Shown: one piece after another, positions 36,336 through 51,845 of the stretch | Position numbering within the stretch: position 1 is the first letter of the stretch | Layout of the letters: each line of letters starts with the position of its first letter | From: Epithemia pelagica | Lineage: Eukaryota; Protista; Bacillariophyta | Length of the DNA: 64,000 bases | Direction: 5' to 3' | Assembly: GCA_946965045.2 (NCBI GenBank) | Contig: OX337236.1 | Span: forward strand, 868,001-932,000 | Notes under the pieces: generated by a model | Database searches by the model: none | Seen by the model: the letters and a program-made list of their open reading frames with translations, nothing else | Told to the model about the DNA's origin: nothing | Translations under genes and position numbers: made by a program

Positions 36336-36515
36336 TTTATTTTTTTATGGTGGGGGTGTGCCTCCATGCTTTTGTCTTCCAAGTGCGCGCGTCCGCGCGC
36401 GTGTCGGGCTGTGCCTGGGGGCACCCCCAAACTCTGACCAACGAAAGTAACAAAATTCCTGAATCTTTTTCCATTTCTGACATTTTTCTCGAAACATCTG
36501 CATTTTCAGACCAGA

Positions 36516-37316
36516 ATGATTCTTGCGGAAACGACAATGATGAAGAAAACAACTTCCCTCTTCAGACCGTTTGTCGGAGCAATAAGATATACATCTCGAC
36601 AGAGATGCATCGGCCACAGAGATTCTCTGCTTGGCATAGAATGGACACGATGGGGCGGTGAAATGTCACTCAAGAGAAGCTTGACCACGAATGATTCCGC
36701 GAATCGTACAACGAATGAGCCGTCCGACAGTTCAATCACAACGAATGCCTTTCATATTCTGGGCATTCCACAATCGTTTGAGATCGATGCCAAGGAGCTC
36801 AAGCAAAAATATCTTGCTCTCATGAACCAACATCATCCAGATCATCAACAACACCAAACTAGTTCAGACGTGGAGGCAACCGCCACAACGGCATCGACCA
36901 TTACGCATGCCTACGAACAACTCTTGAACCCACACCGTCGAGCGGTTCATTTACTCGAAGTCTTGGGGAAACCACTGTTGGAGGGCGAAAGCAATCACCC
37001 CAACAAGCACAGCAAGAGGGACGCATCTTCTCCCGTTGTGGACATGGAATTCTTATCGCAGGTTATGGAAATCCGGGAACAAATTGATCACACACTCAAC
37101 CGTGAAAACCCAGAGGAAGAGGATGGAGCGCTGCTGGATGCCGCCCTCAAGCCTCTGTGGCATGAGAACAATGCCAGGATCCATGAAACATGTCATGCGT
37201 TGCAACAAGCCTTTCAACAAGGTGATTTGGATCAGGCCCTTCGACTCACGGGACATTTGCAATACTGGAATCGCATCGATGAAACAATACGAGAGAATCT
37301 GTCATCCCTCAACTAA
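36516..37316 (+). CDS. HSCB: Fe-S cluster co-chaperone HscB/Hsc20 (Jac1), mitochondrial
   Basis: J domain NAFHILGIPQSFEIDAKELKQKYLALMNQHHPD, AYEQLLNPHRRAVHLL, and C-terminal DMEFLSQVMEIRE..LQYWNRI. The presequence is Arg/Thr/Ser-rich. Confidence 0.9.
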   Translation: MILAETTMMKKTTSLFRPFVGAIRYTSRQRCIGHRDSLLGIEWTRWGGEMSLKRSLTTNDSANRTTNEPSDSSITTNAFHILGIPQSFEIDAKELKQKYLALMNQHHPDHQQHQTSSDVEATATTASTITHAYEQLLNPHRRAVHLLEVLGKPLLEGESNHPNKHSKRDASSPVVDMEFLSQVMEIREQIDHTLNRENPEEEDGALLDAALKPLWHENNARIHETCHALQQAFQQGDLDQALRLTGHLQYWNRIDETIRENLSSLN

Positions 37317-38196: not shown

Positions 38197-38502
38197 TGAG
38201 CAAGGTACAAACTACCGTAGGACCTTGGTGTGATGTTTTGTGTTGTGTATGATCCTTTGTCGAGAGTCTTACGGGGGGGAATACTCCTAGGAAAAAATGG
38301 AGGAACCCATGAGAATGAGAACCCATGAGATCAGGTATCAGGTAGCCATATTACCGGGAGTAGATGTCGTTCCTGGGAAGTGTGATTGGAAGAGAACCCA
38401 TCTTCGGTATCTGAGCCGTGAACTCCCAAGAGAATATTAATGACATTTACCCCCAAAACTAAACCTCATCGCCACAACATGCTACAGAAGTCAACCGTTG
38501 AG

Positions 38503-38643
38503 TGGCTATCGCCACTTCAGTTGCGTGCTACCTCAACCGTCCTTGGCTTGTGATAGAAGATAGCTAGACGAGTAGCTGGTGTTGGGCGAAATACTCCTAG
38601 TTTTCTAGGAGCCCAAACCTTGCTACCGTGCTAGCGGAAAGCC
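38503..38643 (-). repeat. split direct repeat B2 (141 bp)
   Basis: Matches 38801-38935 except for 6 extra bases (GAAATACTCCTAGTTTT versus GAAATAGTTTT). Confidence 0.95.
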
Positions 38644-38658
38644 AGGGCGGGTAGGGCG

Positions 38659-38801
38659 GGTTAATCTATTCTATTCCGAACGGTCTCTCGTGACGGCAAG
38701 AAAAGAATGAGACTTGGCTCTGTGCGATGTGTGTGACACCCGGGTTGCTTTGCTGGACGGGCACGCGCGTCGTCCGTCAATCGTCCGCACGCAACAACAA
38801 T
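38659..38801 (-). repeat. split direct repeat A2 (143 bp)
   Basis: Identical by eye to 44539-44681 (offset 5880). Confidence 0.95.
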
Positions 38802-38935
38802 GGCTATCGCCACTTCAGTTGCGTGCTACCTCAACCGTCCTTGGCTTGTGATAGAAGATAGCTAGACGAGTAGCTGGTGTTGGGCGAAATAGTTTTCTAG
38901 GAGCCCAAACCTTGCTACCGTGCTAGCGGAAAGCC
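38801..38935 (-). repeat. split direct repeat B1 (135 bp)
   Basis: Matches 38503-38643 and shares one T with A2 at the junction. Confidence 0.95.
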
Positions 38936-39082
38936 CACTTCTTGGTGGGCCAAGATAGTGACGGGTGGGACGGGTGACATCGGAGGTGTGGGAGATTGTA
39001 GAGAATGAGTGGGGAATTTGGATGGGAAATAGAAATGGGTATGGGGAGGGTTGGTGCCGTAGGAGTAGGTATGGAACTCGGG

Positions 39083-40648
39083 CTATTCGGGGTAGGCGTC
39101 AAGGAGAGGATCGACGGTTGTTGGTGTGGTGGCGCCCGGGGCTAGAGTGAAGGATCCATGGTCCAGCATGGTTTCGGCGAGACCGCATACGACGGGGATG
39201 GAGCGGGCGTGGAGGTAGCGGAACATGGCATCGGACCGCCATCGTCCCACGAGGCGGATGAGGTCCGTGTCAACTTTTGCTGCCAACAAGGCCATGGCAC
39301 CGCCCGAACGGAGCCCACGAGTTTGGATGTTTTGCATGTCAAGTCCGCAAAGGGGGACACCACCGGACACCTGTCGCAGAAAGGCCGCAATCATAGTGGA
39401 GGTGACGTAATGGAAGAAGCCTTGTCGTGTGGTTGTGTATGCGCAAAGGGGAGTTTCAGGGCCTGCTCCTGCGTGTCGAAGGGCGATTATGCGGCGAACC
39501 AACGAGCGTGTTGGACACATTACTGCATCACCGCTGAGGGCATGGGCGATTATTTCACCTTTGTTGCGATTCTTTTGGTTGTCAAAGGTGATGGCAGAAG
39601 TTGTTGCCTTGAGCAATTCGGTTTCCGGGCAAGCGAAGATGTCAAGCTTGCGGATTCCGACGCAAATAGAAATGTTGCGGCAGAGAAGTGGATAGTTGTC
39701 ATGTGTGAAGGAAAATTCACCGGGGCGGAGCAGGTAGAAAAAACCAATCCATGCCAGTTCCATGGTTGCCTGTGTTTCTTCATCCAAAGTACAGGCGGCG
39801 ATCCGTTGTGCAGTGCGAAGAAGTTGAAGTGGTATGGGTTGTACACGGGCCGGAGGAGGGTCTTTGTTGCGCCAGCTTTTCAACAAGCGTTGGAGGCGGA
39901 TGTCGATGGCGCCGAATTTGTCAAGCCGTGGGTCAGGGGCCCCCATATGGCTAAACGTTTTTGCAATGGAGTGCAGCTCGTCAGCCACGGTATCAGCTTT
40001 GACGGGCTGGTGACTGCGGCTGCATCGTCCATCTCGTATGCGAACGGCGAGGACCTGCAGGATGGGGATTTTGTCTTCGGTGGCAGCAAGGAGGGTGTCG
40101 ACTCCGAGGGATCTGCAAAAAGGTTGCCAAATCTTGGTCCACGAGCGTTGTTGGGCGGATGCGCGTGAGGGTGTGACTGAGTTCCAGGCCGACAACCTTG
40201 CAATGCGCAGATCACTGAGGAAAGAACGTCGGATTGGGGGTGGCGAAGCTGCCAGGAGTGTGTCTGTGGAAAGGCGTTGTTGAAATGGGTGAGTAAAGCA
40301 TGTTGGGACAGATGTGTTAGACGTGACGCATGATCGGCCATGATGTTTTTCTCCCCTGGGAGGTAATGAACCGCGTGTTGGTAGCGGTATTGTCGTTGGT
40401 GAAGGCTCTGCAGTCGGAGTAGGTAAGCTGCTGCGCCGTCGGACGTAATGCTTTTTCGCTTGTTCCAAGCCACGGCGCTGACGTTGTCGCAACCGGTGGC
40501 GAGTGTTGTTTCCTGGATGTTGGCCATGGAGGACAGGACATCGGCATGCAGGATTGTAGCGGCGAGTTCTAAATCGTTGATAGTAATTGTGCCACCGGGG
40601 TTTTCGAATGTCTGCAATTGGGATGTGATGCAGTCTGGCAAAGAGCAA
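39083..40648 (-). CDS. tyrosine recombinase ORF of the retroelement (true start unknown; overlaps pol)
   Basis: AWIGFFYLLRPGEF (catalytic Arg), FDNQKNRNKG (Lys), TRGLRSGGA and GRWRSDAMFRYL (Trp and Tyr nucleophile). Confidence 0.92.
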   Translation of the reverse strand: MLFARLHHIPIADIRKPRWHNYYQRFRTRRYNPACRCPVLHGQHPGNNTRHRLRQRQRRGLEQAKKHYVRRRSSLPTPTAEPSPTTIPLPTRGSLPPRGEKHHGRSCVTSNTSVPTCFTHPFQQRLSTDTLLAASPPPIRRSFLSDLRIARLSAWNSVTPSRASAQQRSWTKIWQPFCRSLGVDTLLAATEDKIPILQVLAVRIRDGRCSRSHQPVKADTVADELHSIAKTFSHMGAPDPRLDKFGAIDIRLQRLLKSWRNKDPPPARVQPIPLQLLRTAQRIAACTLDEETQATMELAWIGFFYLLRPGEFSFTHDNYPLLCRNISICVGIRKLDIFACPETELLKATTSAITFDNQKNRNKGEIIAHALSGDAVMCPTRSLVRRIIALRHAGAGPETPLCAYTTTRQGFFHYVTSTMIAAFLRQVSGGVPLCGLDMQNIQTRGLRSGGAMALLAAKVDTDLIRLVGRWRSDAMFRYLHARSIPVVCGLAETMLDHGSFTLAPGATTPTTVDPLLDAYPE

Positions 40649-42426
40649 CTCCAGACAGTTGGCGGGATGAAAGGTGTGTTTTTGGACGGCCGGATAGGCG
40701 GGAGCCAGACACCGCCAAGGCCCAGTCCAGAAGCATCGCAGGTGCCGTGGAAGGCGGGTTTGGACGGTACAATTTCAGCAATGCGTGTGGGTCGTGACGC
40801 AAGGTCGGTGGCTAACAGTAGCAGGTCGTCGAGTTGGTCGCGGACGGCTGCTGTAATTTGGATGATGCCAGAGTTGTGTGCTTGTGACATGGCGTGCTGT
40901 AACTGGGAAAAGAGGCCATGGGAACCAGGTATCCCAATGGCCATGCTGCGGAGCTCGCCCAATAGTTTTTGAAATTCGAGAAGCGTGGCCGTGGTGCGAT
41001 GGCGAAACATGTGAAGGAGTTGTAGCAGTTTTGTCTTTCGATGGTCTGGCAGTTCGATGGTTTTTTTGATGGTATCAATTTTCCAACCAAGAATAATTTT
41101 GCTGGTCGACCAACAAGCGTCTCCTCGCGTCAGTTTTTTGGTTGATATTGGTTCTCGGCGGCCTTGGCTGTTGTCGGTGTCATCGTTGGGGCGGAACACC
41201 ATGTCATTACAATGGAGGAGCGTCCGCCGCAGTCGGTTGAGTCTTGCTTGGGATCCCTGTCCTAACATTATCTCGTCGTCAAGATAGACATCGCAGTAGG
41301 CCAGGGGTTTGTTGTGCTGATAACGAACAATTTTGGAAGTTGGTTCAGCAGGCAAGTTTGGAAGCGAGACAAGAATGTCGGGCGATGCCGTTGGTGGTGG
41401 TGCAGCTGGGATGTTGGTGGGGGCAGGGAGGCAGATGGTTGTTCGACTGGGGTCCAACGGTGGCTCGGAGCTGGCAAGGCGTTCCAATGGGTGGGCTGGT
41501 GGGTCCCAGGACGTTTCGGACACGAGACGGTTTGTAAGATCTGTCACTGTTTCAGTGAACGCGGTGAACTGAGGGGGACTTTCCGTCCATCCCATTGGGA
41601 GCGTCACCGGGAAGGCTATCAAATCGTTGTGTGAGCCAGGGAGGGGCGGTAGGATGACGCCAAGCCGTGGTACGTCGGCAGGGCGGACAGGGACGCGATA
41701 GAATCCGTCAGATAGGTCAATTTTGAGCATATAGGTGTGCCCATGTTTTGGATTTGCCGACATTATTTGCCGTAGGATGCGCTTGAGAGTGCCCCCAAAT
41801 TGCATGGCTTCTTGGTGGGCTTGGCGGTCGGTGACGGCGTTGATACCGCTGTAAGTATAGTCAACAATGATGCGTGGACGACGCTCACGCTGCGGTACGC
41901 AGCCAATTGGAGAAATTCGTAGGTTTGGCAGCGTTTTGACAAGGTGGTAGGGAAGGACTACCCAGTAGCCGCGTGAGACCATATCGGCCATGTCGCTGTG
42001 GACAAAGGAACGATATTCGCGCGCGCTTTTGTGGCAGCCACGTGTGGTTGCCATGTGTCGAATGCTAGGCGACCACTCGGGGTCGGTGCATAGGACTGGG
42101 ACTCCGGCTCGACGGAATTCGTCTAAGATCGTTGCAGCTCGATGCGGCACACGAGATACGAGCGGGGCAATACAAGACCGTCCGCGGACACGGTGAACGA
42201 AATCCACCCAGGGGAGGGAAGAAAGCAAGGCTGAATGTTGTTCTACTAACTTACCCAGTTCTGTGTTCGCGGTGTCGGTCTTGGTGTTGCTATCGGTTGT
42301 TGCGTGTGCTGTTGTGTGGATCTGGACGACAGGGGGCGGTACAGGATGGGAGTTAGATGGCCTAGAGATGTTCGCGGAGAGTCGCACTCGTTTGTGCGGC
42401 TGGACGGTAACATCTTGGCCTGCATC
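39880..42426 (-). CDS. RT-RNase H (pol) frame of the retroelement, continuous with gag after one TAG
   Basis: ISPIGCVPQRERRPRIIVDY, KIDLSDGFYRV, LPMGWTESP and YLDD; RNase H CDASG, INDLELAA, CDN and NIMADHASR. The frame is open from 42426, immediately after the gag stop. Confidence 0.93.
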   Translation of the reverse strand, partial: DAGQDVTVQPHKRVRLSANISRPSNSHPVPPPVVQIHTTAHATTDSNTKTDTANTELGKLVEQHSALLSSLPWVDFVHRVRGRSCIAPLVSRVPHRAATILDEFRRAGVPVLCTDPEWSPSIRHMATTRGCHKSAREYRSFVHSDMADMVSRGYWVVLPYHLVKTLPNLRISPIGCVPQRERRPRIIVDYTYSGINAVTDRQAHQEAMQFGGTLKRILRQIMSANPKHGHTYMLKIDLSDGFYRVPVRPADVPRLGVILPPLPGSHNDLIAFPVTLPMGWTESPPQFTAFTETVTDLTNRLVSETSWDPPAHPLERLASSEPPLDPSRTTICLPAPTNIPAAPPPTASPDILVSLPNLPAEPTSKIVRYQHNKPLAYCDVYLDDEIMLGQGSQARLNRLRRTLLHCNDMVFRPNDDTDNSQGRREPISTKKLTRGDACWSTSKIILGWKIDTIKKTIELPDHRKTKLLQLLHMFRHRTTATLLEFQKLLGELRSMAIGIPGSHGLFSQLQHAMSQAHNSGIIQITAAVRDQLDDLLLLATDLASRPTRIAEIVPSKPAFHGTCDASGLGLGGVWLPPIRPSKNTPFIPPTVWSCSLPDCITSQLQTFENPGGTITINDLELAATILHADVLSSMANIQETTLATGCDNVSAVAWNKRKSITSDGAAAYLLRLQSLHQRQYRYQHAVHYLPGEKNIMADHASRLTHLSQHALLTHFNNAFPQTHSWQLRHPQSDVLSSVICALQGCRPGTQSHPHAHPPNNARGPRFGNLFADPSESTPSLLPPKTKSPSCRSSPFAYEMDDAAAVTSPSKLIPWLTSCTPLQKRLAIWGPLTHGLTNSAPSTSASNAC

Positions 42427-44538
42427 CTATTCGAGGTGCTGCTGGGCCATGGTGGCGAGGGCAGAGGCTTCAGCATCGGAAAGTGGGCGGTGTGTTGCCA
42501 CTCGGTTACAATTGGAGAAGCAGTGGCCACGCATGTGGTAGCTGAGGCAAATCGGAATTGGCTTGCCTTCGTTGCTGGTGTTGGTAGAGTTTGGTGCGTG
42601 GCTTTGGAAGTCACGAATGCGCTTGGTGGAGGCTTCCAATTTGTCTTTAAGGGCTTTGGAGATGGTGGGATTTGTGACGAGGGCACCGCCACGGTTGGAA
42701 GTGGTGGTGGTGCGTCCCGCATTGGAGGAATCGGGAGTTGTGCTGTCACGCTTCGTTTGTTCGGTTGGTTTGGCTGCGGGCTTGGTGTCTGTCGGTGCAG
42801 TCGGGGCTGGGGCAGGCGAAGGGAGGAGGCGGTAAGCGTCGGGGAGATCCGGTAGCAAGTTGAATTGCTGTAGAGAAATCATGTTTTGTAAGTCGGCAAA
42901 AGGAGGCAAGGGAACAGGATTGCCATCATTTGTCATCAATTGGTGGAAGTAGCAAACAAGATGCGTTTGAATCCAGCGCAGGATGCGTGGAAGCACGGAT
43001 TGGGAAAGGGCGGGATTGTAGCGCGACGAGAGGTGCAATGTGGTTGCAATGGTGGGCCATTGTTTCGTGCAAAAGTACCGGTAGGCGATCGCGCATGGGT
43101 GGTTTTTACCTTGTAGTACATCGAGTTGCACACTCGTAGATGTTAGCATGAGCCCTGCGGTGAAAGGGTCTTGGGGTATGCGGATCTCCTTAGTGTTAAA
43201 GGTGGCTTGTTCGCCTAAGGTAGGAGCGGCAAGCCCTTGGAGCATTGTCTCGTATCCTGTTGCGCGTAACTCCACCGTCTTGCTGAGTTCATCGCCCACA
43301 AAGAGGCCCATACTGAAAGGCTGCAGGCCCAAGGTGAGATCATGGGCTTGGTGGGGCTCCACTCCAAAGCGTGCCGAAAGGACCATCTCTTTTGTTTCTT
43401 TTGAGACCACTGGGGTTTGGTCTGTGGCAGCGTCAGAACTGCGAGCTCGTGCTTTGACCGCGTTGCGGAGAATTGTGAGATGTTCTGCCTTGTCGCTGTT
43501 GACGATTTCGTGGTAGATGGCTGGGAGGTGTTCTTCGTTGGTAACGGAGCAGAAAGTCATCCACTCTCGGGCAACGACTTTGTACTTGGTGGCGGACGGA
43601 AGTTTGTCCTGTTTATCGGCTACGCGGCGCGCTTCGTCTTGGGCACGTTCTTGTGCACGATCACTCCGCATTGTGCTCAAGAATTTGACAAAGTGTTGAT
43701 CGGTGATGCCGCCAACATTGCTCACTGTTGTTGTGCGGTTGAGGGCAGGCATGTCTCGTGTGAGAATGTTCCAACGATGACGATCCAATTGCTCGTCTGC
43801 TGGAACGTTGGGGAAGACGGTGTTGATATCGCCCAGACAGGTAGCTGGTGCACTCCCCTTTTTGCGGCGAAAGGATGCCACACGTAACCAATCAACCAGT
43901 TGTACGCATGCCAGTTCGCGTGAGTCTTGTACAAGAGCGGTGGTTAGAACGGACCAGGCTTCTCGTGTGGAAAACGTTTTGCCCAAGACGAGGGAAACGT
44001 ATGCTGCGGGGACGGGTATAAGGCGTCGAGTGGTGATGGATGTGGAGCCGGCTTCGTTCTGAGGGACAGGTTCAAGGATGTCTACGTTGTAATCCGCCTT
44101 CCACTTGGCGTCCATGTTGGCGTGGACGGTGACTCGCTGCGGTTCGGTGACTTCGAAACAGTCATCAGGGAGTGTGACAGTTCGGATGAAGTGACTGCCT
44201 GCCCGAATGTCGCCGATGAAGGCGAAGACCTTGTCGTCCCATGTGTGCGAGATGCGGGTCATGTCTTGCTCGTAACGTGATGGTCGGTGGACGGCGATTA
44301 CACAGTAGTCGTTGTCGATCTCCACTTGGGCGAGGAACACCTTGGGAATGTTTTGAGCGGAGGTGACGACGGTTTCAAACAGAGCTTCCTTGGAAAGACC
44401 GTTGACGGGGTGATATGGCTTGTACAGAGCTGAATACTGGCCATTGAAGGCATCACGTTGGTTATGGTAGCGTGCTTTGTAGTTGGTGGCGGCCACAGGT
44501 GGCTGTGCCGCAGCGGTCGGGGCACCTGGGGTGGCCAT
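42427..44538 (-). CDS. gag-like ORF1 of the retroelement (703 aa)
   Basis: The ATG directly abuts repeat A1. C-terminal CCCH-like finger ICLSYHMRGHCFSNCNRVATH. Confidence 0.85.
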   Translation of the reverse strand: MATPGAPTAAAQPPVAATNYKARYHNQRDAFNGQYSALYKPYHPVNGLSKEALFETVVTSAQNIPKVFLAQVEIDNDYCVIAVHRPSRYEQDMTRISHTWDDKVFAFIGDIRAGSHFIRTVTLPDDCFEVTEPQRVTVHANMDAKWKADYNVDILEPVPQNEAGSTSITTRRLIPVPAAYVSLVLGKTFSTREAWSVLTTALVQDSRELACVQLVDWLRVASFRRKKGSAPATCLGDINTVFPNVPADEQLDRHRWNILTRDMPALNRTTTVSNVGGITDQHFVKFLSTMRSDRAQERAQDEARRVADKQDKLPSATKYKVVAREWMTFCSVTNEEHLPAIYHEIVNSDKAEHLTILRNAVKARARSSDAATDQTPVVSKETKEMVLSARFGVEPHQAHDLTLGLQPFSMGLFVGDELSKTVELRATGYETMLQGLAAPTLGEQATFNTKEIRIPQDPFTAGLMLTSTSVQLDVLQGKNHPCAIAYRYFCTKQWPTIATTLHLSSRYNPALSQSVLPRILRWIQTHLVCYFHQLMTNDGNPVPLPPFADLQNMISLQQFNLLPDLPDAYRLLPSPAPAPTAPTDTKPAAKPTEQTKRDSTTPDSSNAGRTTTTSNRGGALVTNPTISKALKDKLEASTKRIRDFQSHAPNSTNTSNEGKPIPICLSYHMRGHCFSNCNRVATHRPLSDAEASALATMAQQHLE

Positions 44539-44681
44539 GGTTAATCTATTCTATTCCGAACGGTCTCTCGTGACGGCAAGAAAAGAATGAGACTTGGCTC
44601 TGTGCGATGTGTGTGACACCCGGGTTGCTTTGCTGGACGGGCACGCGCGTCGTCCGTCAATCGTCCGCACGCAACAACAAT
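44539..44681 (-). repeat. split direct repeat A1 (143 bp)
   Basis: Identical by eye to 38659-38801. Confidence 0.95.
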
Positions 44682-44835
44682 TTGAAATCCATGATTGATT
44701 TTTCCTCTTACGGATAGGTTGTGCCCAATACGACTTCTTGTCCCCACAATCACTTGCCGCGTTGTAAATGTACTCTCCGGAGGGGGTGGGTCGCAGTCGG
44801 GAGTGAGTCATGCATCTTCGATACATTCTTAACGG

Positions 44836-45897
44836 ATGGAACATGAGCGACTTGAGACTAGAACCCGCTGGGAGTTAGTAGTTGGGTCAATTTTCGCTTC
44901 GTCCTGCATTTTGAGGCGACGCGATGGTTTTCTCCTTGGGAAACTCGTCTTCTCCCGAAGGAGAGAAGAGGGCAATAAGCAACGAACCCAGAATCTGGCA
45001 ACAGGACGCTCCGGATCCAGATCCAGCAACTCCAAGCATCGGCATGCGACACGACCAGAGCCGGACGACGACAATGAGAAGAACAGCAACAACAAGACCT
45101 CTGCCACACTCATTCGTGACCTGTTGGACGACGAACACAAGTGTCATCAAGTGGTCGTTTGGATCAAGCCAGCCTGTCCCTATTGTCATGCCACGGTAGA
45201 TTTGTTGCAACAGAAACTCAAAGGCTTGGATGTCAAGGTTCATTATTTGTTCCAGTCGCCTCAAGATGCATTGGTCCACGACGAATTGGCTCACTTAACG
45301 AGTGGCCAACGCACGGTGCCGTATATTTTTATTCATGGACAACCCATTGTGGGTGGCAATAGTCAATTGCAAGAACTGTACCATCACGACCAACTCGAAG
45401 CCTTGCTGTTTCCACAATTGTCTGTGGCATCCGACAAAGGTCATGGTGCCGATCGACAACAACAACAACAAGAATATGTTCGGGCCGTTTGGAAAGGTAG
45501 AGTGGTGGCAGAATGTGAGGAATCTCGCATTCGCGTCGTTGGCGTGTTGCATCCCCAGTATTATTTCCCTCCGGATTTCATACTTGCTCTACAGGACGAA
45601 GACAACAAGAAGAATAACAAAGTGTGCCATTTGGAACCCATTGACGACGACACGACTCCCTATTATTGCGGATCCAAGGGAGGTGAGGCCACCTATTATA
45701 CACTCCTCGTGAAACAAACGACGACGGTGGGTGAGAAGAACAATCCTGATGCAAAACGCACGTGGTATAAGTATCCCCACGCGGCATGGTCCTATCCGAA
45801 TCCCACAAAGGCAGCCGAACTCAAGGATCATGTTTGCTTTGACAGTGAGGTTGCCATTCTCAAGGGACGGGAACAGATATATCCACCATTGGTCTAG
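44836..45897 (+). CDS. glutaredoxin (CPYC) - DUF427 fusion protein; N-terminus uncertain
   Basis: Grx motifs WIKPACPYC, GQRTVPYIFI and VGGNSQL. DUF427 motifs VRAVWKGRVVAE, YYFPPDFI, YCGSKGGEATYY and AAWSYPNPTKAAELKDHVCF. Confidence 0.8.
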   Translation: MEHERLETRTRWELVVGSIFASSCILRRRDGFLLGKLVFSRRREEGNKQRTQNLATGRSGSRSSNSKHRHATRPEPDDDNEKNSNNKTSATLIRDLLDDEHKCHQVVVWIKPACPYCHATVDLLQQKLKGLDVKVHYLFQSPQDALVHDELAHLTSGQRTVPYIFIHGQPIVGGNSQLQELYHHDQLEALLFPQLSVASDKGHGADRQQQQQEYVRAVWKGRVVAECEESRIRVVGVLHPQYYFPPDFILALQDEDNKKNNKVCHLEPIDDDTTPYYCGSKGGEATYYTLLVKQTTTVGEKNNPDAKRTWYKYPHAAWSYPNPTKAAELKDHVCFDSEVAILKGREQIYPPLV

Positions 45898-46512: not shown

Positions 46513-49500
46513 CTACTTTGCAAGGTTGCTACTGTTCATGAAGTGAGAGGCAGAGGTAGGGGATGCTGGTGGTGGTGAGTGTGGCACCGTTCTGGAGGTC
46601 GGTGCTACGCGAACCGACGCCACTGCTGTCGTTGACACTGCGGAGCTGGCATTGTTGTTGCCGGTCGATCGTGTGGCGATTCGCAGAAATGATACCAGGA
46701 CCAGGACAAAGAACATTGCAACCCAACTAATGTACCATTGTTCCACAACCAGAAAGGCTGTTGATAAGATCCATAAAATGATTTGCATTGGCGTACCAAA
46801 TCGCAAAAAGTCATTGTACTTGTAACCACCTGGTCCGTAAATCAACAAGTTCGTAGTATACCCAAACGGGGACATGAAACTCGCCGAGGCGCCCAACATG
46901 AGTGCATAACTCATAATGATTCGATCTGTTCCGGTTTGTTCTGCAGCATCCAAGGCAATGGGGAACAAAAGAGCTGCGGCTGCATTGTTGGTAACCACGT
47001 TGGAAATAAGAAATGTGGCAAAATACACAGCTCCCAGCAAACCGGCATCGCCTATTCCTACGGCTTCTCCAACATCCACCAAAAAGTTGGCAATGCCACC
47101 GGCCACACCTGAATTTACCATTGCATTACCAATCCCAAACGCACATGCGATAGTGATATAAATATCCCACTTGAACGCATCTCTTGCTTCTTGTTCTGAC
47201 AAAATTCCCAGTGCCACCATGGAAACGGCCGCCACTAGCGCACATATCAAGATGGACGTAACTCCAGCCGTAAAGACGGCAAGCATGGCAATCGCAATCG
47301 CCAAGGCAGGAATGAGCAAATCTAGTCTGGGAGGTGCCGAGTCTTTGACTTCGGCCAAAAGGGCAAAGGCTCGATCATTCTCAGCAGATCGTCCTAAAAA
47401 CGAAGGCCCAGCTTCCAAAAGTAACACATCACCAGCTTGAAGTTTGATCCGACCAGGGTGTTCATGGACGCGTTTGCCCTCACGATGAACTGCAATAACA
47501 GCAGCTCCGAAACGAGTTCGAAACTGTAGCTCCTTGACAGTCTGACCGACCAATGGTCCATTTCGTGCAACCACTGCCTGTACCAAGCGGCGGTCGTGTA
47601 CCCTCTCGTTGATTTTCTCCACTTCCTCATTTTGATATTGCACCAAACCAGGAATCTTCCTCAAATCTCCTACAGCCGACGCTGAACCAGAAAACCACAA
47701 GACATCACCTTCTTGCAGAGGTTCATCGGGATCAATGGCTTCAAAAGCGATGTGGTCTGTTCGAACAGATTGCAAATCGCTTCCAACATGCTGCCCTTCT
47801 TCGTCGCCACCATGTGGTGATGTTGATCTGGTATGGAGAAACGCTTGTGGGTGTAACAACGCATGTTTGAATTTGGCGATGCGGGGAAAGTCGCTGTTCA
47901 TTGTGTTGCCAGCCGCGGCGTTGTGATGACTGGTAGTATCTTCCAGTTGTGATTCTCCTAATTGGTCCCGCGGTCGTTCAATACTAACCAGAAACAAGTC
48001 TGGTAGCTTGTGAATACCGCCTTGAGCGACTGTCTTTCCGACAAACTTGGAGCCTGGTGCAATCGCCATGGCAGTGAGAAATTCTCGTGACGCAGCCGCC
48101 TTGCCGTGACTGTCTCCGTCCTCTTTAAAGACTACCATTAAATCTTGCCATACTTTTTCTTGCTGCATCTTCCGATGCATTGTGATATCATCCGATGGCT
48201 CGTCCGCCTGGAAGGATTCTTCATGGACATCGGTATTTGTGTTGTTGGCCGCACCACCTTCTGCGGCAGAAAATGGACCACTGCTATAGTCGTCATCTCC
48301 ATCTGAGGACGAAGGAATTTCTTCACGGACAAAAAACATTTCTCCCTCGACGTCTTCCATGCCTTCCAAGGTCGGAAGAATGGTACCATGGGTTGTGTCG
48401 TTGGTCGAGGTGGGTACCGGTGGTTCTGATTTGACAATACCGGCTGTACTATGGGGCGCGGTTATCGTAGTAGGTGTAGTAGCACCACTCGTGGCTTTGC
48501 TGGATGACGGTTTGGTGCTGGCAGTTCCCATTTGCCGTGTGGCATCCGACGACGACACTCCACTTTCTTCATCGTCGTCACTGGTTCCAAGACCAGCACC
48601 TGCAGAACCCAGATTACTGTTGCTTCGTCTCCGAATCATCTTGACCAAGTTCGACACGGATCCAGTTCCCCGTGTCAACAATCCACTGCTACTACCACCA
48701 TGATTATGAGACATCAACAGGGGGTGCTGGTGTTGTTGCTCCGCTCGTTCTTGTTCGGCCAACGATTCTTCCAATTCTTTGTAAAAGTTGGCGGGCGGTT
48801 GGTTCAACAACGGGGAGTCGTCGCTGGCTTGCAAAATCAAAATATCTCCGACATCCAATCGGACCGTGGCCAAATTGGCCGTGGGAACATTGGTTCCTCC
48901 CTGTCTCAAGGCCACAATTGCGGTTTTGTACACTTGTCGAAAATTGATTTCCGTCGCCGTCTTTCCGATCAATCGCGACCCCTTGACCACAGTGGCTCGA
49001 ACGACTCGCAATCCCCGTTCCTTGATCGCTTCGACTCCGGCATCAGCCGACAACAAGGCATGTAAGACGGACCAAATTTGTTCGACATCGGGCAAGTCTG
49101 TACCAATCACTTGACACCGCCAAATCGAGACAGATCGTTCGATAAAGACGGCTGCTTCTGTGTGATGCAATTGCAAATCCAGTCGTAGCAAGCCCTTGGA
49201 AATGTCCAACAACAAGCCAGCCCGATCACGCGCATTAATACCAACGACCACCAAATCTTTCTCGACTGTCACCACAATTTTGGGCGGATCAGTGGGACGT
49301 AATCCATCCACCGTATTGACTTGATGATGATGAACATGTGGGTGTATTTGATGGTTCGCATGCTGCGCGTGATTCTGTCCGGGAAGCAATGGATTGTGGG
49401 GTGGTCTCAATCCCCGCATGGGCGGTAGCAATCGACCTGGTCCTCCAGAACTGTGTACAGTTCCTCCTCCTCCTCCCGCATGATTGGGTGGTCCCACGAA

Positions 49501-51171
49501 GGTCGTCCCAGAGGTCGTGGTCGTGGTGGGTGCATCGGGGGCCAAAATACTTCTCTGACTACTGGAGGTATTGGCATTGCGAATGATATCTCGCATCCGA
49601 TTAATGTTTCGAATCAACTCATCGTAGTCAGCTTGCAATAAGGATTCTTTTGAACATCCGACAACTCGATCAGTCAGTTTCATATCATCATCTTCGTCAA
49701 TAGTTTCCAAATCCAAATTCGATTGCCAATTCATGGGTTGGAAAGCCAAACTAGACATGGCCCCCTCGTCACCCTCATGGATGGTGATCGAGTTCACTGT
49801 TGTATGTCCTTCTTCTTCTTGTTCGCCTTGTTCTTGTGGCTCGTCCAAATCCGGGCCATTGAGGGGAATGGTCGTAAAGGGTGCTGTCGCAGCACCATCA
49901 TCATTTTCGTTCTCCCAAACAGGTACACCATTGTGAGACTTGAGGGTGGTGGTAGTGGCCGTCGTGGTTGCCGATCCCGGTGCGAGTGGTTCATGTTGTG
50001 TGGCTACTTCATTGGTGAGTACCTCCAGTCCATTGTCGGCACAAAAATCTCCAAAATTCTCGACATTGTGTCCGGTAAAGTACAGGATATCGCCGACATT
50101 AAGGACAAAGTCTTGCGAGACGGCCCGATGGACATTGCCCGTGGCGGCACGATGGACACTGACCAAATAAATACCACCGGTATCGCGCAATCCCGATCGT
50201 TGGACGGTCCGATTGACTGCGGGAGACCATTGGGTCAAGCGAGCTCCCAACAAGAGTTCATCGGCTTCGGCGGCGGCATCGACAGTGTCGTTCCCACCGG
50301 GCAGTAAAAAGGGAGAAGCAATCAAAATGTAGGCTACACCCGCCATGGCAACGGGGACACCAAACTGTCCCAAATCAAACAAACCAATGCTCACGGGTTC
50401 TTCGTCTTGTGTCGTACCGTCGTCATTGTTGTTGTTGTTACCACTGTATCGTTCCTCCAACAATCCAGTAACCACCAAGTTGGTGCTGGTTCCAATCAAG
50501 GTACAGGTACCACCCAAAATACTGGCAAAACTGAGTGGAATGAGTAATTGTTGTGGCGATTGACGTATATTTTTGGCCCATCGTTGAACAATGGGGATCA
50601 TGACAACCACGACGGGTGTATTGTTCAAAAAGGCAGACACGAGGGCAATGGGGATCATCAATCGCAATTGTGCCGATGCCAAATTTTTGGGATGTCCCAG
50701 CAATTTTTGCATGTACCAATCCAAGGCACCTGTTTTGCCAATGCCTTCTGCCACGACAAACAGAATCATGACGGCCCACAAACCTTCATTGGCAAACCCC
50801 TCCAATCCTTCTTTGACCGATATAATTTGGGACGCCAAAAAGGCCGTCAACGATGCCAACATGATGGAATCGGCTCCAAAACGATCCGAAATCAAGGCGA
50901 GAAACATGAAACACAAGACCAGCGATGTAAAGGCAATCTCCCATGGTTCATTGTCACCATCATCTTCTTCTTCGTCGTCATCGTTACTGTTCAACCATCG
51001 GCGCACAAAGGTTGGCATACGACCCAAACTTGTCGTTGTTGCCGTTTCACACGGACAGTACGGATAGTTCAAGAAGGACTCTTGCATGAGTGGATCCGTG
51101 GGATACTCGTAGGAATCATAGTTGTCTGTTTCGCTATGGCCCCTCTCAAATTCTAGTTCAACCGGTTCCAT
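46513..51171 (-). CDS. SLC13/CitMHS-type anion transporter (SLT/SAC1-like putative Na+/sulfate cotransporter) with four TrkA-C (RCK_C) domains and an ACT-like domain (1,552 aa)
   Basis: [47 protein letters not shown] and [30 protein letters not shown]. Four TrkA-C-like segments (e.g. [29 protein letters not shown]). The substrate is inferred only. Confidence 0.88.
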   Translation of the reverse strand: [1552 protein letters not shown]

Positions 51172-51845
51172 GGTGGTGTTGACTCAAAAAGACTTGTCTT
51201 GTTGTATATAATATATAAATGGTGGACGTGCGAGTGTCAAGAAGCAGTGCATGTGCTTTCACACCATCGAATGCCTTCCTGTGCAGAGTTTGGTTGGCAC
51301 GACACAGAAATGTCGTGGAGAAAACGACACAACCACACACCTCACGTACAACAAAACCAATCAATCGTTTGTTCCTTCTCACGAGACGAAATGGTATGAA
51401 ATTTGGAACGTGGTGACGTTTGCGGCGTCCTCGTCCTCCAGTCTGGTTGCGTCTCTCGAGTGCAAGTGGCACAACAAAAAGCAAAACGTCTATTGGAATG
51501 CACGTGACAACAGTCTGTTCACTGTTCACTTCTTCATTCCATGAATGGGTGTCCGATCGAAAACTTGTAAGTTTTGGAGCTCATCTGTTGTTGTTCCAAA
51601 GTTTTACAAGGGGGCCCGCGTGTGTTCGCGTTCGTCGAGACGAAGGTGTGACATGGATGACACATGACAATGACACCACCTGTGACATGTCTTCGGTCGA
51701 ACGCCGACACGGTGACGGTGACGCACGACATGCCTATCGAATCGCTTCTAAATCGCGTTGCGTACTCGATCGGCTTTGTGGCTGTAACCTTAGTTACTCA
51801 TAGCACTCTCCTACCTAGAAGGTATCCCATTTTCGATCCACTGCT

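Follow-up and report, generated by a model that had tools for sequence, protein, structure and literature searches.

The element and its open reading frames

The window, meaning the whole 64-kb stretch of Epithemia pelagica DNA that was analysed, carries a single copy of an intact, 6.2-kb, Ngaro-like tyrosine-recombinase (YR) retrotransposon whose terminal repeats are nearly identical and whose open reading frames (ORFs) are intact (Table 1). An empty site exists, in that contigs from three of three runs join position 38502 to 44681, and no target-site duplication was seen at the element ends. The element is classed as Ngaro-like by its repeat layout, its YR and its reverse transcriptase (RT) content, the RT tree covering its own clade alone. 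Its split direct repeats (A1-B1A2B2), with internal repeats lying 3' of the YR, follow the layout defined in PMC8547959 and PMC4157794, and the YR ORF itself is present. Pfam scans of the element and its homologues returned no family of DDE integrases. The absence of a methyltransferase separates Ngaro from PAT/DIRS elements; no methyltransferase family was found in 60 Pol proteins by Pfam, which also missed RNase H, and the room after the end of RNase H comes to only about 150 codons, which overlap the YR. A pattern search of viral contigs gave 16 matches and no relatives.

ORF1 is likely a Gag, a name given from its position and its C-terminal Cys/His motif. In 32 ORF1 proteins C673 and C677 are invariant and C664 and H683 nearly so, and the motif sits 17-48 codons 5' of the stop wherever the pattern matched. 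ORF1 has no Pfam family, and its whole-chain model (pLDDT 84.6, pTM 0.44) found no Foldseek match at E<=0.001 (best Z 4.8) and no match of weight with VIA-align. For Pol 1150 homologues were found; the window protein matches RVT_1 at an E of 5.7e-05, which falls under Pfam's cut-off, and 37 of 60 homologues match the same family. The RNase H domain, which has no Pfam match, is one that we take to be present from its motifs. The YR has no sequence-level match in the PDB, Phage_integrase is matched weakly by 7 of 36 of its homologues, and the model of 40249-39086 resembles Cre (E 2e-08, TM 0.61). The YR ORF always lies in the -1 frame, with no classical slippery heptamer conserved from the end of RNase H to the YR body, and it often lacks an early ATG, so that these elements must use another non-standard start route for it.

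Table 1. Features of the retrotransposon and of its gag-pol junction (positions in the window)
Feature	Position	Strand	Basis or remark
Full-length tyrosine-recombinase retrotransposon, A1-[ORFs]-B1-A2-B2	38503..44681	-	Repeats and empty site
Repeat A1, 143 nt	44539..44681	-	100% identical to A2
ORF1, Gag-like, 703 aa, TAG-terminated	42427..44538	-	Relatives carry a homologous ORF at this place
C-terminal Cys/His (zinc-finger-like) motif C664-H683 of ORF1	42490..42549	-	Comparison of 32 ORF1 proteins
In-frame amber stop, context UAG GAU	42427..42429	-	Type III readthrough context; kept in sister contigs
Spacer GATGCA, 6 nt	42421..42426	-	Family geometry
5' arm of basal helix, GGCC	42417..42420	-	Predicted pairing with 42359-42362
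5' arm of upper helix, AGATGTT	42409..42415	-	Predicted pairing with 42366-42372; a 1x3 internal loop lies below
Apical hairpin CGCAC/GTGCG	42383..42398	-	Variable, not conserved in the family
3' arms AACATCT-CTA-GGCC	42359..42372	-	Predicted fold
pol (RT and RNase H-like), 848 codons, in gag frame	39880..42426	-	RVT_1, homologues
Tyrosine recombinase ORF in -1 frame; overlap with 3' end of pol	39083..40774	-	Predicted fold like Cre
Repeat B1	38801..38935	-	Repeat comparison
Repeat A2	38659..38801	-	100% identical to A1
Repeat B2	38503..38643	-	Identical to B1 except for a 6-nt insertion

The gag-pol junction in the window copy

An earlier note, made from the letters of the window, had proposed that gag and pol are separated by one in-frame amber codon followed by a stem-loop, and that this codon is a candidate for readthrough. 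Its description of the junction holds in every detail: gag ends CAC CTC GAA TAG, the same frame then stays open until the stop at 39882-39880 (1,552 residues, counting X at the stop), the first pol-frame ATG is at 42054, 124 codons after the stop, and the out-of-frame ATG in TAGGATG yields a peptide of 59 aa. The context belongs to type III (UAGGGV, UAGGUA or UAGGAU), which according to the accessible text of PMC13517186 generally requires a 3' structure.

The stem proposed in the note, with its inner CGCAC/GTGCG hairpin, is both the minimum free energy and the centroid structure (-23.8 kcal/mol, z -3.84, none of 200 shuffles as stable), and its 11 arm pairs have probabilities of 0.92-1.00 in three context sizes. 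Among the 509 72-nt windows of the element it ranks 8th; of the seven ahead of it five are in the terminal repeats and two are internal. Judged from the window copy alone the hairpin is no more than suggestive; the case for its being more than a product of chance comes from the comparison with relatives.

The nearest of these are sister contigs from three runs of one study (two samples at most, possibly the window's own source), which keep the TAG and differ at three positions, +21, +22 and +28, all outside the conserved arms. The same runs contain a diverged family whose match to the element is limited to a 24-nt island (42410-42433, one difference) spanning the stop, the spacer and the 5' arm, with adjoining segments that differ by 3 nt in length.

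The stop codon among relatives

More distant relatives are 38-53% identical to the window element in Pol, and clustering at 80% nucleotide identity reduced 74 loci with upstream DNA to 55 clusters, among which the window is counted. A single in-frame stop closes ORF1 at 70 of the 74 loci and in 52 of the 55 clusters, pol follows in the gag frame in all 52, and a sense-codon fusion of gag and pol occurs at none of the 74 loci; one nested clade (3 clusters) lacks both an ORF1 homologue and the motif. These counts bear directly on whether the TAG arose privately, as a nonsense mutation in a gag-pol ORF that had been continuous, and is followed by a hairpin through chance. Decayed copies with extra stops do exist among the loci (L064, L041, L005, L014, L025, L028 and others), as such an account would predict, but it is refuted by the stop kept family-wide and in the sister contigs and by the absence of any fused relative, and the nearly identical terminal repeats and intact ORFs of the window copy also speak against it; we give it practically no weight.

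The identity of the stop is skewed. The 52 junctions comprise 41 TGA, 10 TAG and 1 TAA, whereas TAA makes up 41 of the 79 ordinary pol and YR stops of the same elements (Fisher p 1e-10, with clusters treated as independent). Since TGA predominates, amber is the minority state, and the amber codon of the earlier note is correct for the window copy and does not extend to the family as a rule. G is the next base after all 10 junction TAG codons but after just 1 of 19 ordinary TAG stops, and 6 of the 10 junction codons lie in a type III hexamer (GGA 2, GGC, GGG, GAU 2). In a quick tree that holds just this clade of elements the TAG rows occupy 8 separate places, of which two share a single open fork. 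After UGA any base may follow (13 A, 12 G, 11 C and 5 U among 41 clusters); C follows in just 11 of the 41 and the known leaky contexts CGG or CUA in 5, so most UGA contexts are not type II, a point against readthrough. A host with a reassigned stop codon was considered and rejected: the host's ORFs nearby have TAA, TAG, TAG and TGA as their stops, the window element's own YR terminates in TAG, and TGG is used 822 times in the Pol ORFs of the 52 clusters.

From the gag stop to the conserved Pol block, 4,723 codons contain 1 stop, whereas the other frames have 185 and 273. This openness follows from how the junction was located, as the first stop encountered upstream of pol, and is given no weight as evidence. 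Ten close pairs were compared over the stretch before the first ATG: in five of them, one just 8 codons long, pN/pS is 0.27-0.42, and in the other five it is 0.62-1.03, the lower values favouring readthrough and the higher ones counting against it.

The predicted stem-loop among relatives

The sequence after the stop has a fixed geometry. GG occupies +7/+8 in 48 of 52 clusters, compared with 4 of 79 control stops; GG(C/T) starts at +7 in 46, and in 42 the 6-nt spacer is followed by GGC, with a partner GCC predicted 30-100 nt further on. The constraint sits on the nucleotides, because the glycine codon at this place is GGC in 42 of 48 cases and in 38% of cases in pol. Over the 90 nt that follow the stop, folding z averages -2.17, with 24 of 52 clusters below -2, while the controls range from -0.81 to +0.02 at 11 other offsets and give -0.11 and -0.79 at natural stops. 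Family-wide pairing probabilities at +7 to +9 and +12 to +14 are 0.92-0.95. An upper helix of at least 4 bp is predicted in 34 of 52 clusters, against 22% with foreign arms, and the remaining 18 fail this rule; a cluster's own 5' arm folds at -17.5 kcal/mol and foreign arms at -13.4, a difference not found at three control offsets.

Little can be concluded from the three basal pairs by themselves, as they hardly vary and their sequence also codes for Gly and x-Pro; RNAalifold applied to a plain alignment returns just these three pairs and no covariation term. More can be learned from the fourth pair, which was evaluated in the 34 clusters with the partner GCC picked on the upper helix alone. 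It is Watson-Crick or GU in 22 of the 34 (GC 8, TA 5, CG 4, AT 3, GT 2; A-A in 8), compared with 10.6 by permutation (0 of 10,000), and double changes number 9 where 3.8 are expected (0 of 500 shuffles). A covariance model trained on 22 junctions places junctions of other loci in its top six matches and falls exactly on junctions in 13 of 25, and it is a weak model, with a best E of 0.002 and two top matches that are close kin of training rows. The earlier note had looked to other copies for a retained stop and for covariation in the stem, and both are found, the latter at the fourth pair of GGC(N)/(N')GCC. What the family conserves of the junction is the 6-nt spacer together with the GGC/GCC base and the helix on top of that base. 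The inner CGCAC/GTGCG hairpin does not belong to this conserved part, since the apical region varies among clusters in both length and sequence.

Instead of being misread by a near-cognate tRNA, the stop might be recoded, either in the RNA by A-to-I editing of UAG or UGA to a Trp codon or through decoding of UGA as selenocysteine. The dominance of UGA suits such recoding, the shortage of UAA would follow from editing as well, because two edits would be needed, and in the longest context the stop of the window copy does lie within a predicted helix. A stop-containing helix was rejected as a family feature, however, since the stop pairs family-wide at no more than background (about 0.6), far less than the arms. 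The 5' G of UGA is moreover a poor context for ADARs, which are known from animals, while selenocysteine would leave 10 TAG and 1 TAA unexplained and Rfam, SECIS included, gives no match in the element or in seven loci. Recoding of the stop in either form is accordingly very improbable.

Routes to Pol

In 20 of the 52 clusters, the window element included, there is no ATG ahead of the conserved N-terminal block of Pol. Pol might nevertheless have an RNA of its own, separate or subgenomic, or be translated by ribosomes that reinitiate, or initiate internally, at an AUG or near-cognate codon after the gag stop; the stem would then serve in initiation, as a promoter or in packaging. Tca2 offers a precedent, in that its gag-UGA-pol junction, with a predicted pseudoknot, gave no readthrough in a yeast reporter and contained a cryptic promoter (accessible text of PMC2194720). 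An ATG does precede the conserved block in 32 of 52 clusters, an ATG in any frame lies within about 12 nt of the stop in 22, and the YR ORF already points to a non-standard start in these elements. Separate initiation would have to do without an ATG in the other 20 clusters, an in-frame ATG, CTG, GTG, ACG or TTG occurs in the first five codons in just 14 of 52 with no common position, and there would be no explanation for the gag-frame position of pol in 52 of 52, the avoidance of UAA or the G after every UAG. We regard this route as improbable.

A spliced mRNA could equally remove the stop and join gag or a leader to pol. In each of the 10 TAG clusters the TAG and its following G look like a 3' splice site, the 15 nt 5' of TAG are slightly richer in pyrimidine (0.60 vs 0.49), and three annotated diatom gene models (P0122, P0124, P0125) skip the junction, presumably by predicted introns. 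These models skip differing stretches, however, and in P0122 the Cys/His motif is cut short at its end, as may be expected from automatic prediction. The stop is TGA, without the AG, in 41 of 52 clusters; YAG 3' of the stop is scattered, with at most 8 of 52 at any one position; a YTRAY branch motif is present in 1 of 10 TAG and 4 of 39 TGA clusters; and splicing would not require gag and pol to share a frame. Splicing therefore has very little probability. The earlier note had set a spliced or separate transcript against its own proposal, and the 52 clusters hold neither a common splice acceptor nor a common start codon.

The clade-wide single in-frame stop, the skew in its identity and context, the fixed spacer and the predicted covarying structure together argue strongly for programmed, structure-stimulated readthrough that yields a Gag-RT/RNase H fusion, so that the candidate of the earlier note is now very probable on comparative grounds. 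Given readthrough, the stem probably stimulates it, and is less likely to be an adjacent signal that serves some other purpose. Most ribosomes would stop at the gag end and release Gag, while a few would insert an amino acid at the stop by means of a near-cognate tRNA, with the stem positioned at the mRNA entry channel. The product, running across the junction as HLE-X-DAGQDVTVQPHK, would be a Gag-RT-RNase H fusion of about 1,550 aa and would set a low ratio of RT to Gag. Because the D[ST]G[AS] protease motif is absent from the first 200 pol codons in the 52 clusters, the fusion would remain uncleaved. A search for natural Gag-Pol fusions among longer proteins gave no match with a Gag query and four with a Pol query (the three annotated gene models and one gag-less type), both weak negatives.

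Comparison with known systems

The element shares with the Ngaros of Cafeteria burkhardae (PMC8547959) and Xenopus (PMC9210276), as far as the accessible text of these papers describes them, the A1-[ORFs]-B1A2B2 structure, a length of about 6 kb, the order gag - RT/RH - YR, the lack of a detected methyltransferase and the internal repeats 3' of the YR. In the Xenopus Ngaro as described there all ORF frames overlap, whereas in the window element gag and pol form one frame with one stop. The same text does not mention readthrough for Ngaros, no report of readthrough in the DIRS order was found in the literature searched, and the papers found there that pair "Ngaro" with "readthrough" mean transcriptional readthrough.

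The mechanism would likely resemble gammaretroviral and alphaviral readthrough. The gammaretrovirus MoMLV and the epsilonretrovirus WDSV also have a single in-frame stop at the gag end, a UAG-G context and a structure after a short spacer, and they make a low-ratio Gag-Pol fusion such as the sequences suggest for the window clade; WDSV has the exact UAG GAU context of the window element. The window clade differs from these viruses in having UGA in most clusters, a spacer of 6 nt instead of 8 and a stem-loop with an internal loop in which no pseudoknot was seen, and the window element lacks a protease motif and has a YR in place of the DDE integrase. The alphavirus and coltivirus cases VEEV, SINV and CTFV resemble the clade in having UGA followed by a basal stem with conserved arms and an enclosed part of variable length. 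They have UGA-CGG or UGA-CUA and a stem from +12 or later, counted from the first base of the stop, whereas in the window clade the base after UGA is free and the stem begins at the 7th base after the stop; the spacers of MoMLV, VEEV, SINV and CTFV are at least 8 nt, and the shorter spacer of the window clade counts against readthrough. Tca2 of Candida albicans, an LTR-class element, likewise has gag and pol split by an in-frame UGA with a predicted 3' structure, but the invariance of that structure as given in the accessible text of PMC2194720 is among eight strains only, while the structure described here was compared over 52 divergent clusters.

With some reserve, we incline to the broader view that a large algal clade of YR retrotransposons has a readthrough signal of its own, so that recoding would here be described in the DIRS order for the first time. 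The signal would combine any of the stops with a spacer of exactly 6 nt and a clamp, GGC(N)/(N')GCC, above which a small, asymmetric internal loop leads into a helix whose sequence is free and which encloses 10-80 nt. It would have no need for the known leaky UGA contexts and would yield the uncleaved Gag-RT/RNase H fusion, leaving a second non-standard route for the recombinase.

Significance

How DIRS-order elements express Gag and RT and keep them in balance has hardly been addressed in the literature consulted, and readthrough, if true, would be a precise answer for a large algal clade. The approximately 50 divergent cassettes, with all three stops, varied apical regions and one fixed geometry, form a natural series for studying how termination is weakened by a 3' stem positioned at the entry channel. 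The in-frame stop also explains why automatic annotation truncates Pol or bridges the junction with an intron. For diatoms or related algae, the finding would add a structure-stimulated readthrough signal that would be useful for expression at a fixed ratio.

Conservation of the gag-pol junction

In the window's copy of the element, a Ngaro-like tyrosine-recombinase retrotransposon, the Gag-like ORF1 and pol share a single frame divided by one TAG, as the earlier note had reported when it proposed stop-codon readthrough, and a recheck recovered both the nearest pol-frame ATG (42054) and the 59-aa peptide encoded from the out-of-frame ATG by the stop. The 62-nt stem-loop which that note placed at 42420-42359 is indeed the minimum-free-energy fold (z -3.84), and its arms pair with probabilities of 0.92-1.00 at three context sizes. 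Because it ranks only eighth among the 509 folding windows of the element, the window's own copy is no proof of function by itself.

Layout of the element in the window
Feature	Position	Strand	Detail
Repeats A1-[ORFs]-B1-A2-B2	44681 to 38503	-	repeat comparison
ORF1 (Gag-like)	ATG 44538 to TAG 42429-42427	-	703 aa
pol	to 39880	-	848 open codons; same frame as ORF1
YR ORF	40774-39083	-	-1 frame relative to pol

Relatives were sought with an alignment of 60 Pol proteins, which gave 483 in metagenome contigs, and 78 loci (38-53% identity) were kept. The junction was defined for each locus by extending the Pol match 5' to the nearest in-frame stop; four of the 78 end before any such stop, leaving 74 usable. 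Clustering at 80% nucleotide identity groups these 78 loci, with the window's copy added, into 58 clusters, of which 55 have upstream DNA and 52 are in-frame. The stop terminates an in-frame ORF1 in 70 of the 74 loci (52 of the 55 clusters), and a sense codon occupies the junction in none of the loci examined. For L064 an additional TAA, 129 codons downstream of the junction, was skipped manually when the junction was set; the Cys/His motif of L041 contains an additional stop; and ORF1 of L015 and L068 is presumed, because only 2 and 14 codons lie upstream.

The other four loci (L039, L073, L075, L076; three clusters) form one nested clade on the tree, a derived, possibly gag-less form: their Pol, like protein P0123, has a low-complexity N-terminal extension of 250-600 residues, and their contigs contain neither an ORF1 homologue nor the junction motif. 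Separately, a second ORF1 match lies 3' of YR in the contigs of L004, L022, L023, L043, L051, L074 and L077, reflecting tandem copies, circular intermediates or collapsed assembly.

Among sister copies, the contigs of three sequencing runs of one study all keep the TAG, and a nonsense mutation private to the window's copy is scarcely credible. Contig variants 21, 22 and 28 nt past the stop leave both helices intact, and a diverged family matches 42410-42433 only, with one difference. The homologous protein P0004 (70% identical) retains the peptides that the two arms encode, GQDV and NISRP, together with an N-terminal block lying 5' of the window copy's first ATG. Separate initiation of pol, on which Tca2 is a cautionary case (PMC2194720, in part), is improbable, since no start codon is common to the clusters.

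Stop identity and context

The junction stop is TGA in 41 of the 52 clusters, TAG in 10 and TAA in one, and TAA makes up 19/45 and 22/34 of the ordinary terminators of pol and YR in the same elements. G directly follows the junction TAG in 10/10 clusters, spread over eight places on a quick tree, vs 1/19 ordinary TAG; tests on clusters assume independence, so that significance is overstated. The base after TGA is free, the type II readthrough context occurring in only 5/41. The window's UAG GAU is a type III readthrough context, identical to that of WDSV (PMC13517186, in part). Splicing across the junction could draw on the acceptor-like TAG|G and on three gene models that skip the junction, but the skipping differs from model to model and 41 of the 52 clusters have TGA, and it is judged very unlikely; RNA editing or selenocysteine insertion at the stop is given equally little credence.

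A predicted structured motif downstream of the stop

Six nucleotides past the stop, GG is present in 48 of the 52 clusters and GGC in 42, GGC being used for 38% of pol Gly codons generally. Folding of the 90 nt past the stop exceeds that of shuffles (mean z -2.17; below -2 in 24/52), a comparable excess being absent at eleven other offsets and at natural stops. Under free folding the G at +8 pairs downstream with probability of at least 0.5 in 45/52 clusters, its partner being GCC in 36. With the GCC partner picked for pair statistics by the upper helix alone, that helix has at least four contiguous pairs in 34/52 clusters, vs 22% with foreign arms. The fourth, clamp-adjacent pair in those 34 (GC 8, TA 5, CG 4, AT 3, GT 2, AA 8, other 4) is standard in 22, where permutation gives 10.6. 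At the second pair of the upper helix, CG (14) and GC (13) alternate with AT (6) and TA (1). An alignment of 22 short cassettes from the 34, hence pre-selected for the upper helix, contains nine double changes at the fourth pair vs 3.8; RNAalifold reports three basal pairs only.

The consensus is the stop, N6, GGC(N), an internal loop (1x2, 1x3 or 2x3), a helix of 4-8+ pairs, a variable apex and (N')GCC. This GCC lies at +36 to +102 and in a single codon register in 33/34 clusters (background 102/147), the expected pattern for a translated stretch. The window's stem matches the motif exactly; the predicted stem of the earlier note is family-wide, with covariation at the fourth pair, while the inner hairpin included in it is the variable apex. 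The top six matches of a covariance model are junctions of other loci, with modest E-values, and Rfam gave no match for the element and seven loci.

Element architecture and the YR frame

The element is Ngaro-like, a label resting on its repeat and ORF layout, which is that of Ngaro (PMC8547959; PMC4157794, both in part). Its A repeats (143 nt) are identical, its B repeats identical but for 6 nt, and contigs that connect 38502 to 44681 show that the insertion site also occurs empty. A 17-nt flanking stretch (38274-38290) resembles the region of the 6-nt insertion in B2 (38584-38600; 88%). Five of the element's six most stable folding windows (z -3.85 to -5.0) fall in the B repeats and B1/A2 junction (38933-38754, 38633-38550), possibly as replication signals. 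Flanking host genes at 36438-37316, 44833-45897 and 46513-51183 encode an HscB co-chaperone, a glutaredoxin-DUF427 fusion and a CitMHS/TrkA-C transporter.

A Cys/His motif is conserved at the C-terminus of ORF1, which has no family or fold match; its predicted model (44538-42430) has high local confidence (pLDDT 84.6), as a whole matches no solved structure, and has an N-terminal mixed alpha/beta part that the comparison barely covered. The RVT_1 match of Pol is weak, and its named homologues all come from diatoms (Mayamaea, Pseudo-nitzschia, Cyclostephanos, Skeletonema), consistent with a diatom as the window's host. A Pfam scan of 60 Pol proteins detected no methyltransferase; the same scan also missed RNase H.

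The third ORF, whose model resembles the tyrosine recombinase Cre (E 2e-08), occupies the -1 frame relative to pol in 48/48 clusters (the window and 47 related loci). Its conserved N-terminal domain often begins 5' of the first ATG, which in the window (~39946) lies past four helices of the model. An NTG codon directly precedes the conserved part in 36/47 (TTG 21, CTG 7, ATG 7), which may simply be due to a Trp conserved in Pol. No slippery heptamer common to relatives was found between the RNase H end and the YR body. Within the overlap of pol and YR, close to the pol stop and the first YR ATG, a strong hairpin (z -4.8) is predicted at 40037-39954.

Proposed mechanism and comparison with known systems

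The comparisons establish the geometry, conservation and stop bias of the junction and, at the level of prediction, a structure with covariation. Termination at the gag stop is likely leaky, the stem probably stimulating readthrough, and the readthrough product would be a minor Gag-RT-RNase H fusion. Because YR retrotransposons lack a protease (PMC3783388, in part) and no protease motif was found in the first 200 pol codons of the 52 clusters, this fusion would stay whole.

By analogy, readthrough in the element would work in the same way as gammaretroviral, alphaviral and coltiviral readthrough, with a shorter spacer and free stop identity in the element's clade. The one-frame gag and pol are also unlike the overlapping ORFs of Xenopus Ngaro (PMC9210276, in part). 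Translational readthrough in DIRS-order elements is not described in the available parts of PMC6681497, PMC3783388, PMC5890265, PMC7192593, PMC4157794, PMC5009743, PMC11572971 and 10.1101/2021.04.08.439009, nor was it found in searches of the wider, openly accessible literature. Unreported for the DIRS order in the literature searched, the putative signal of the element's clade would be a variation on known viral readthrough.
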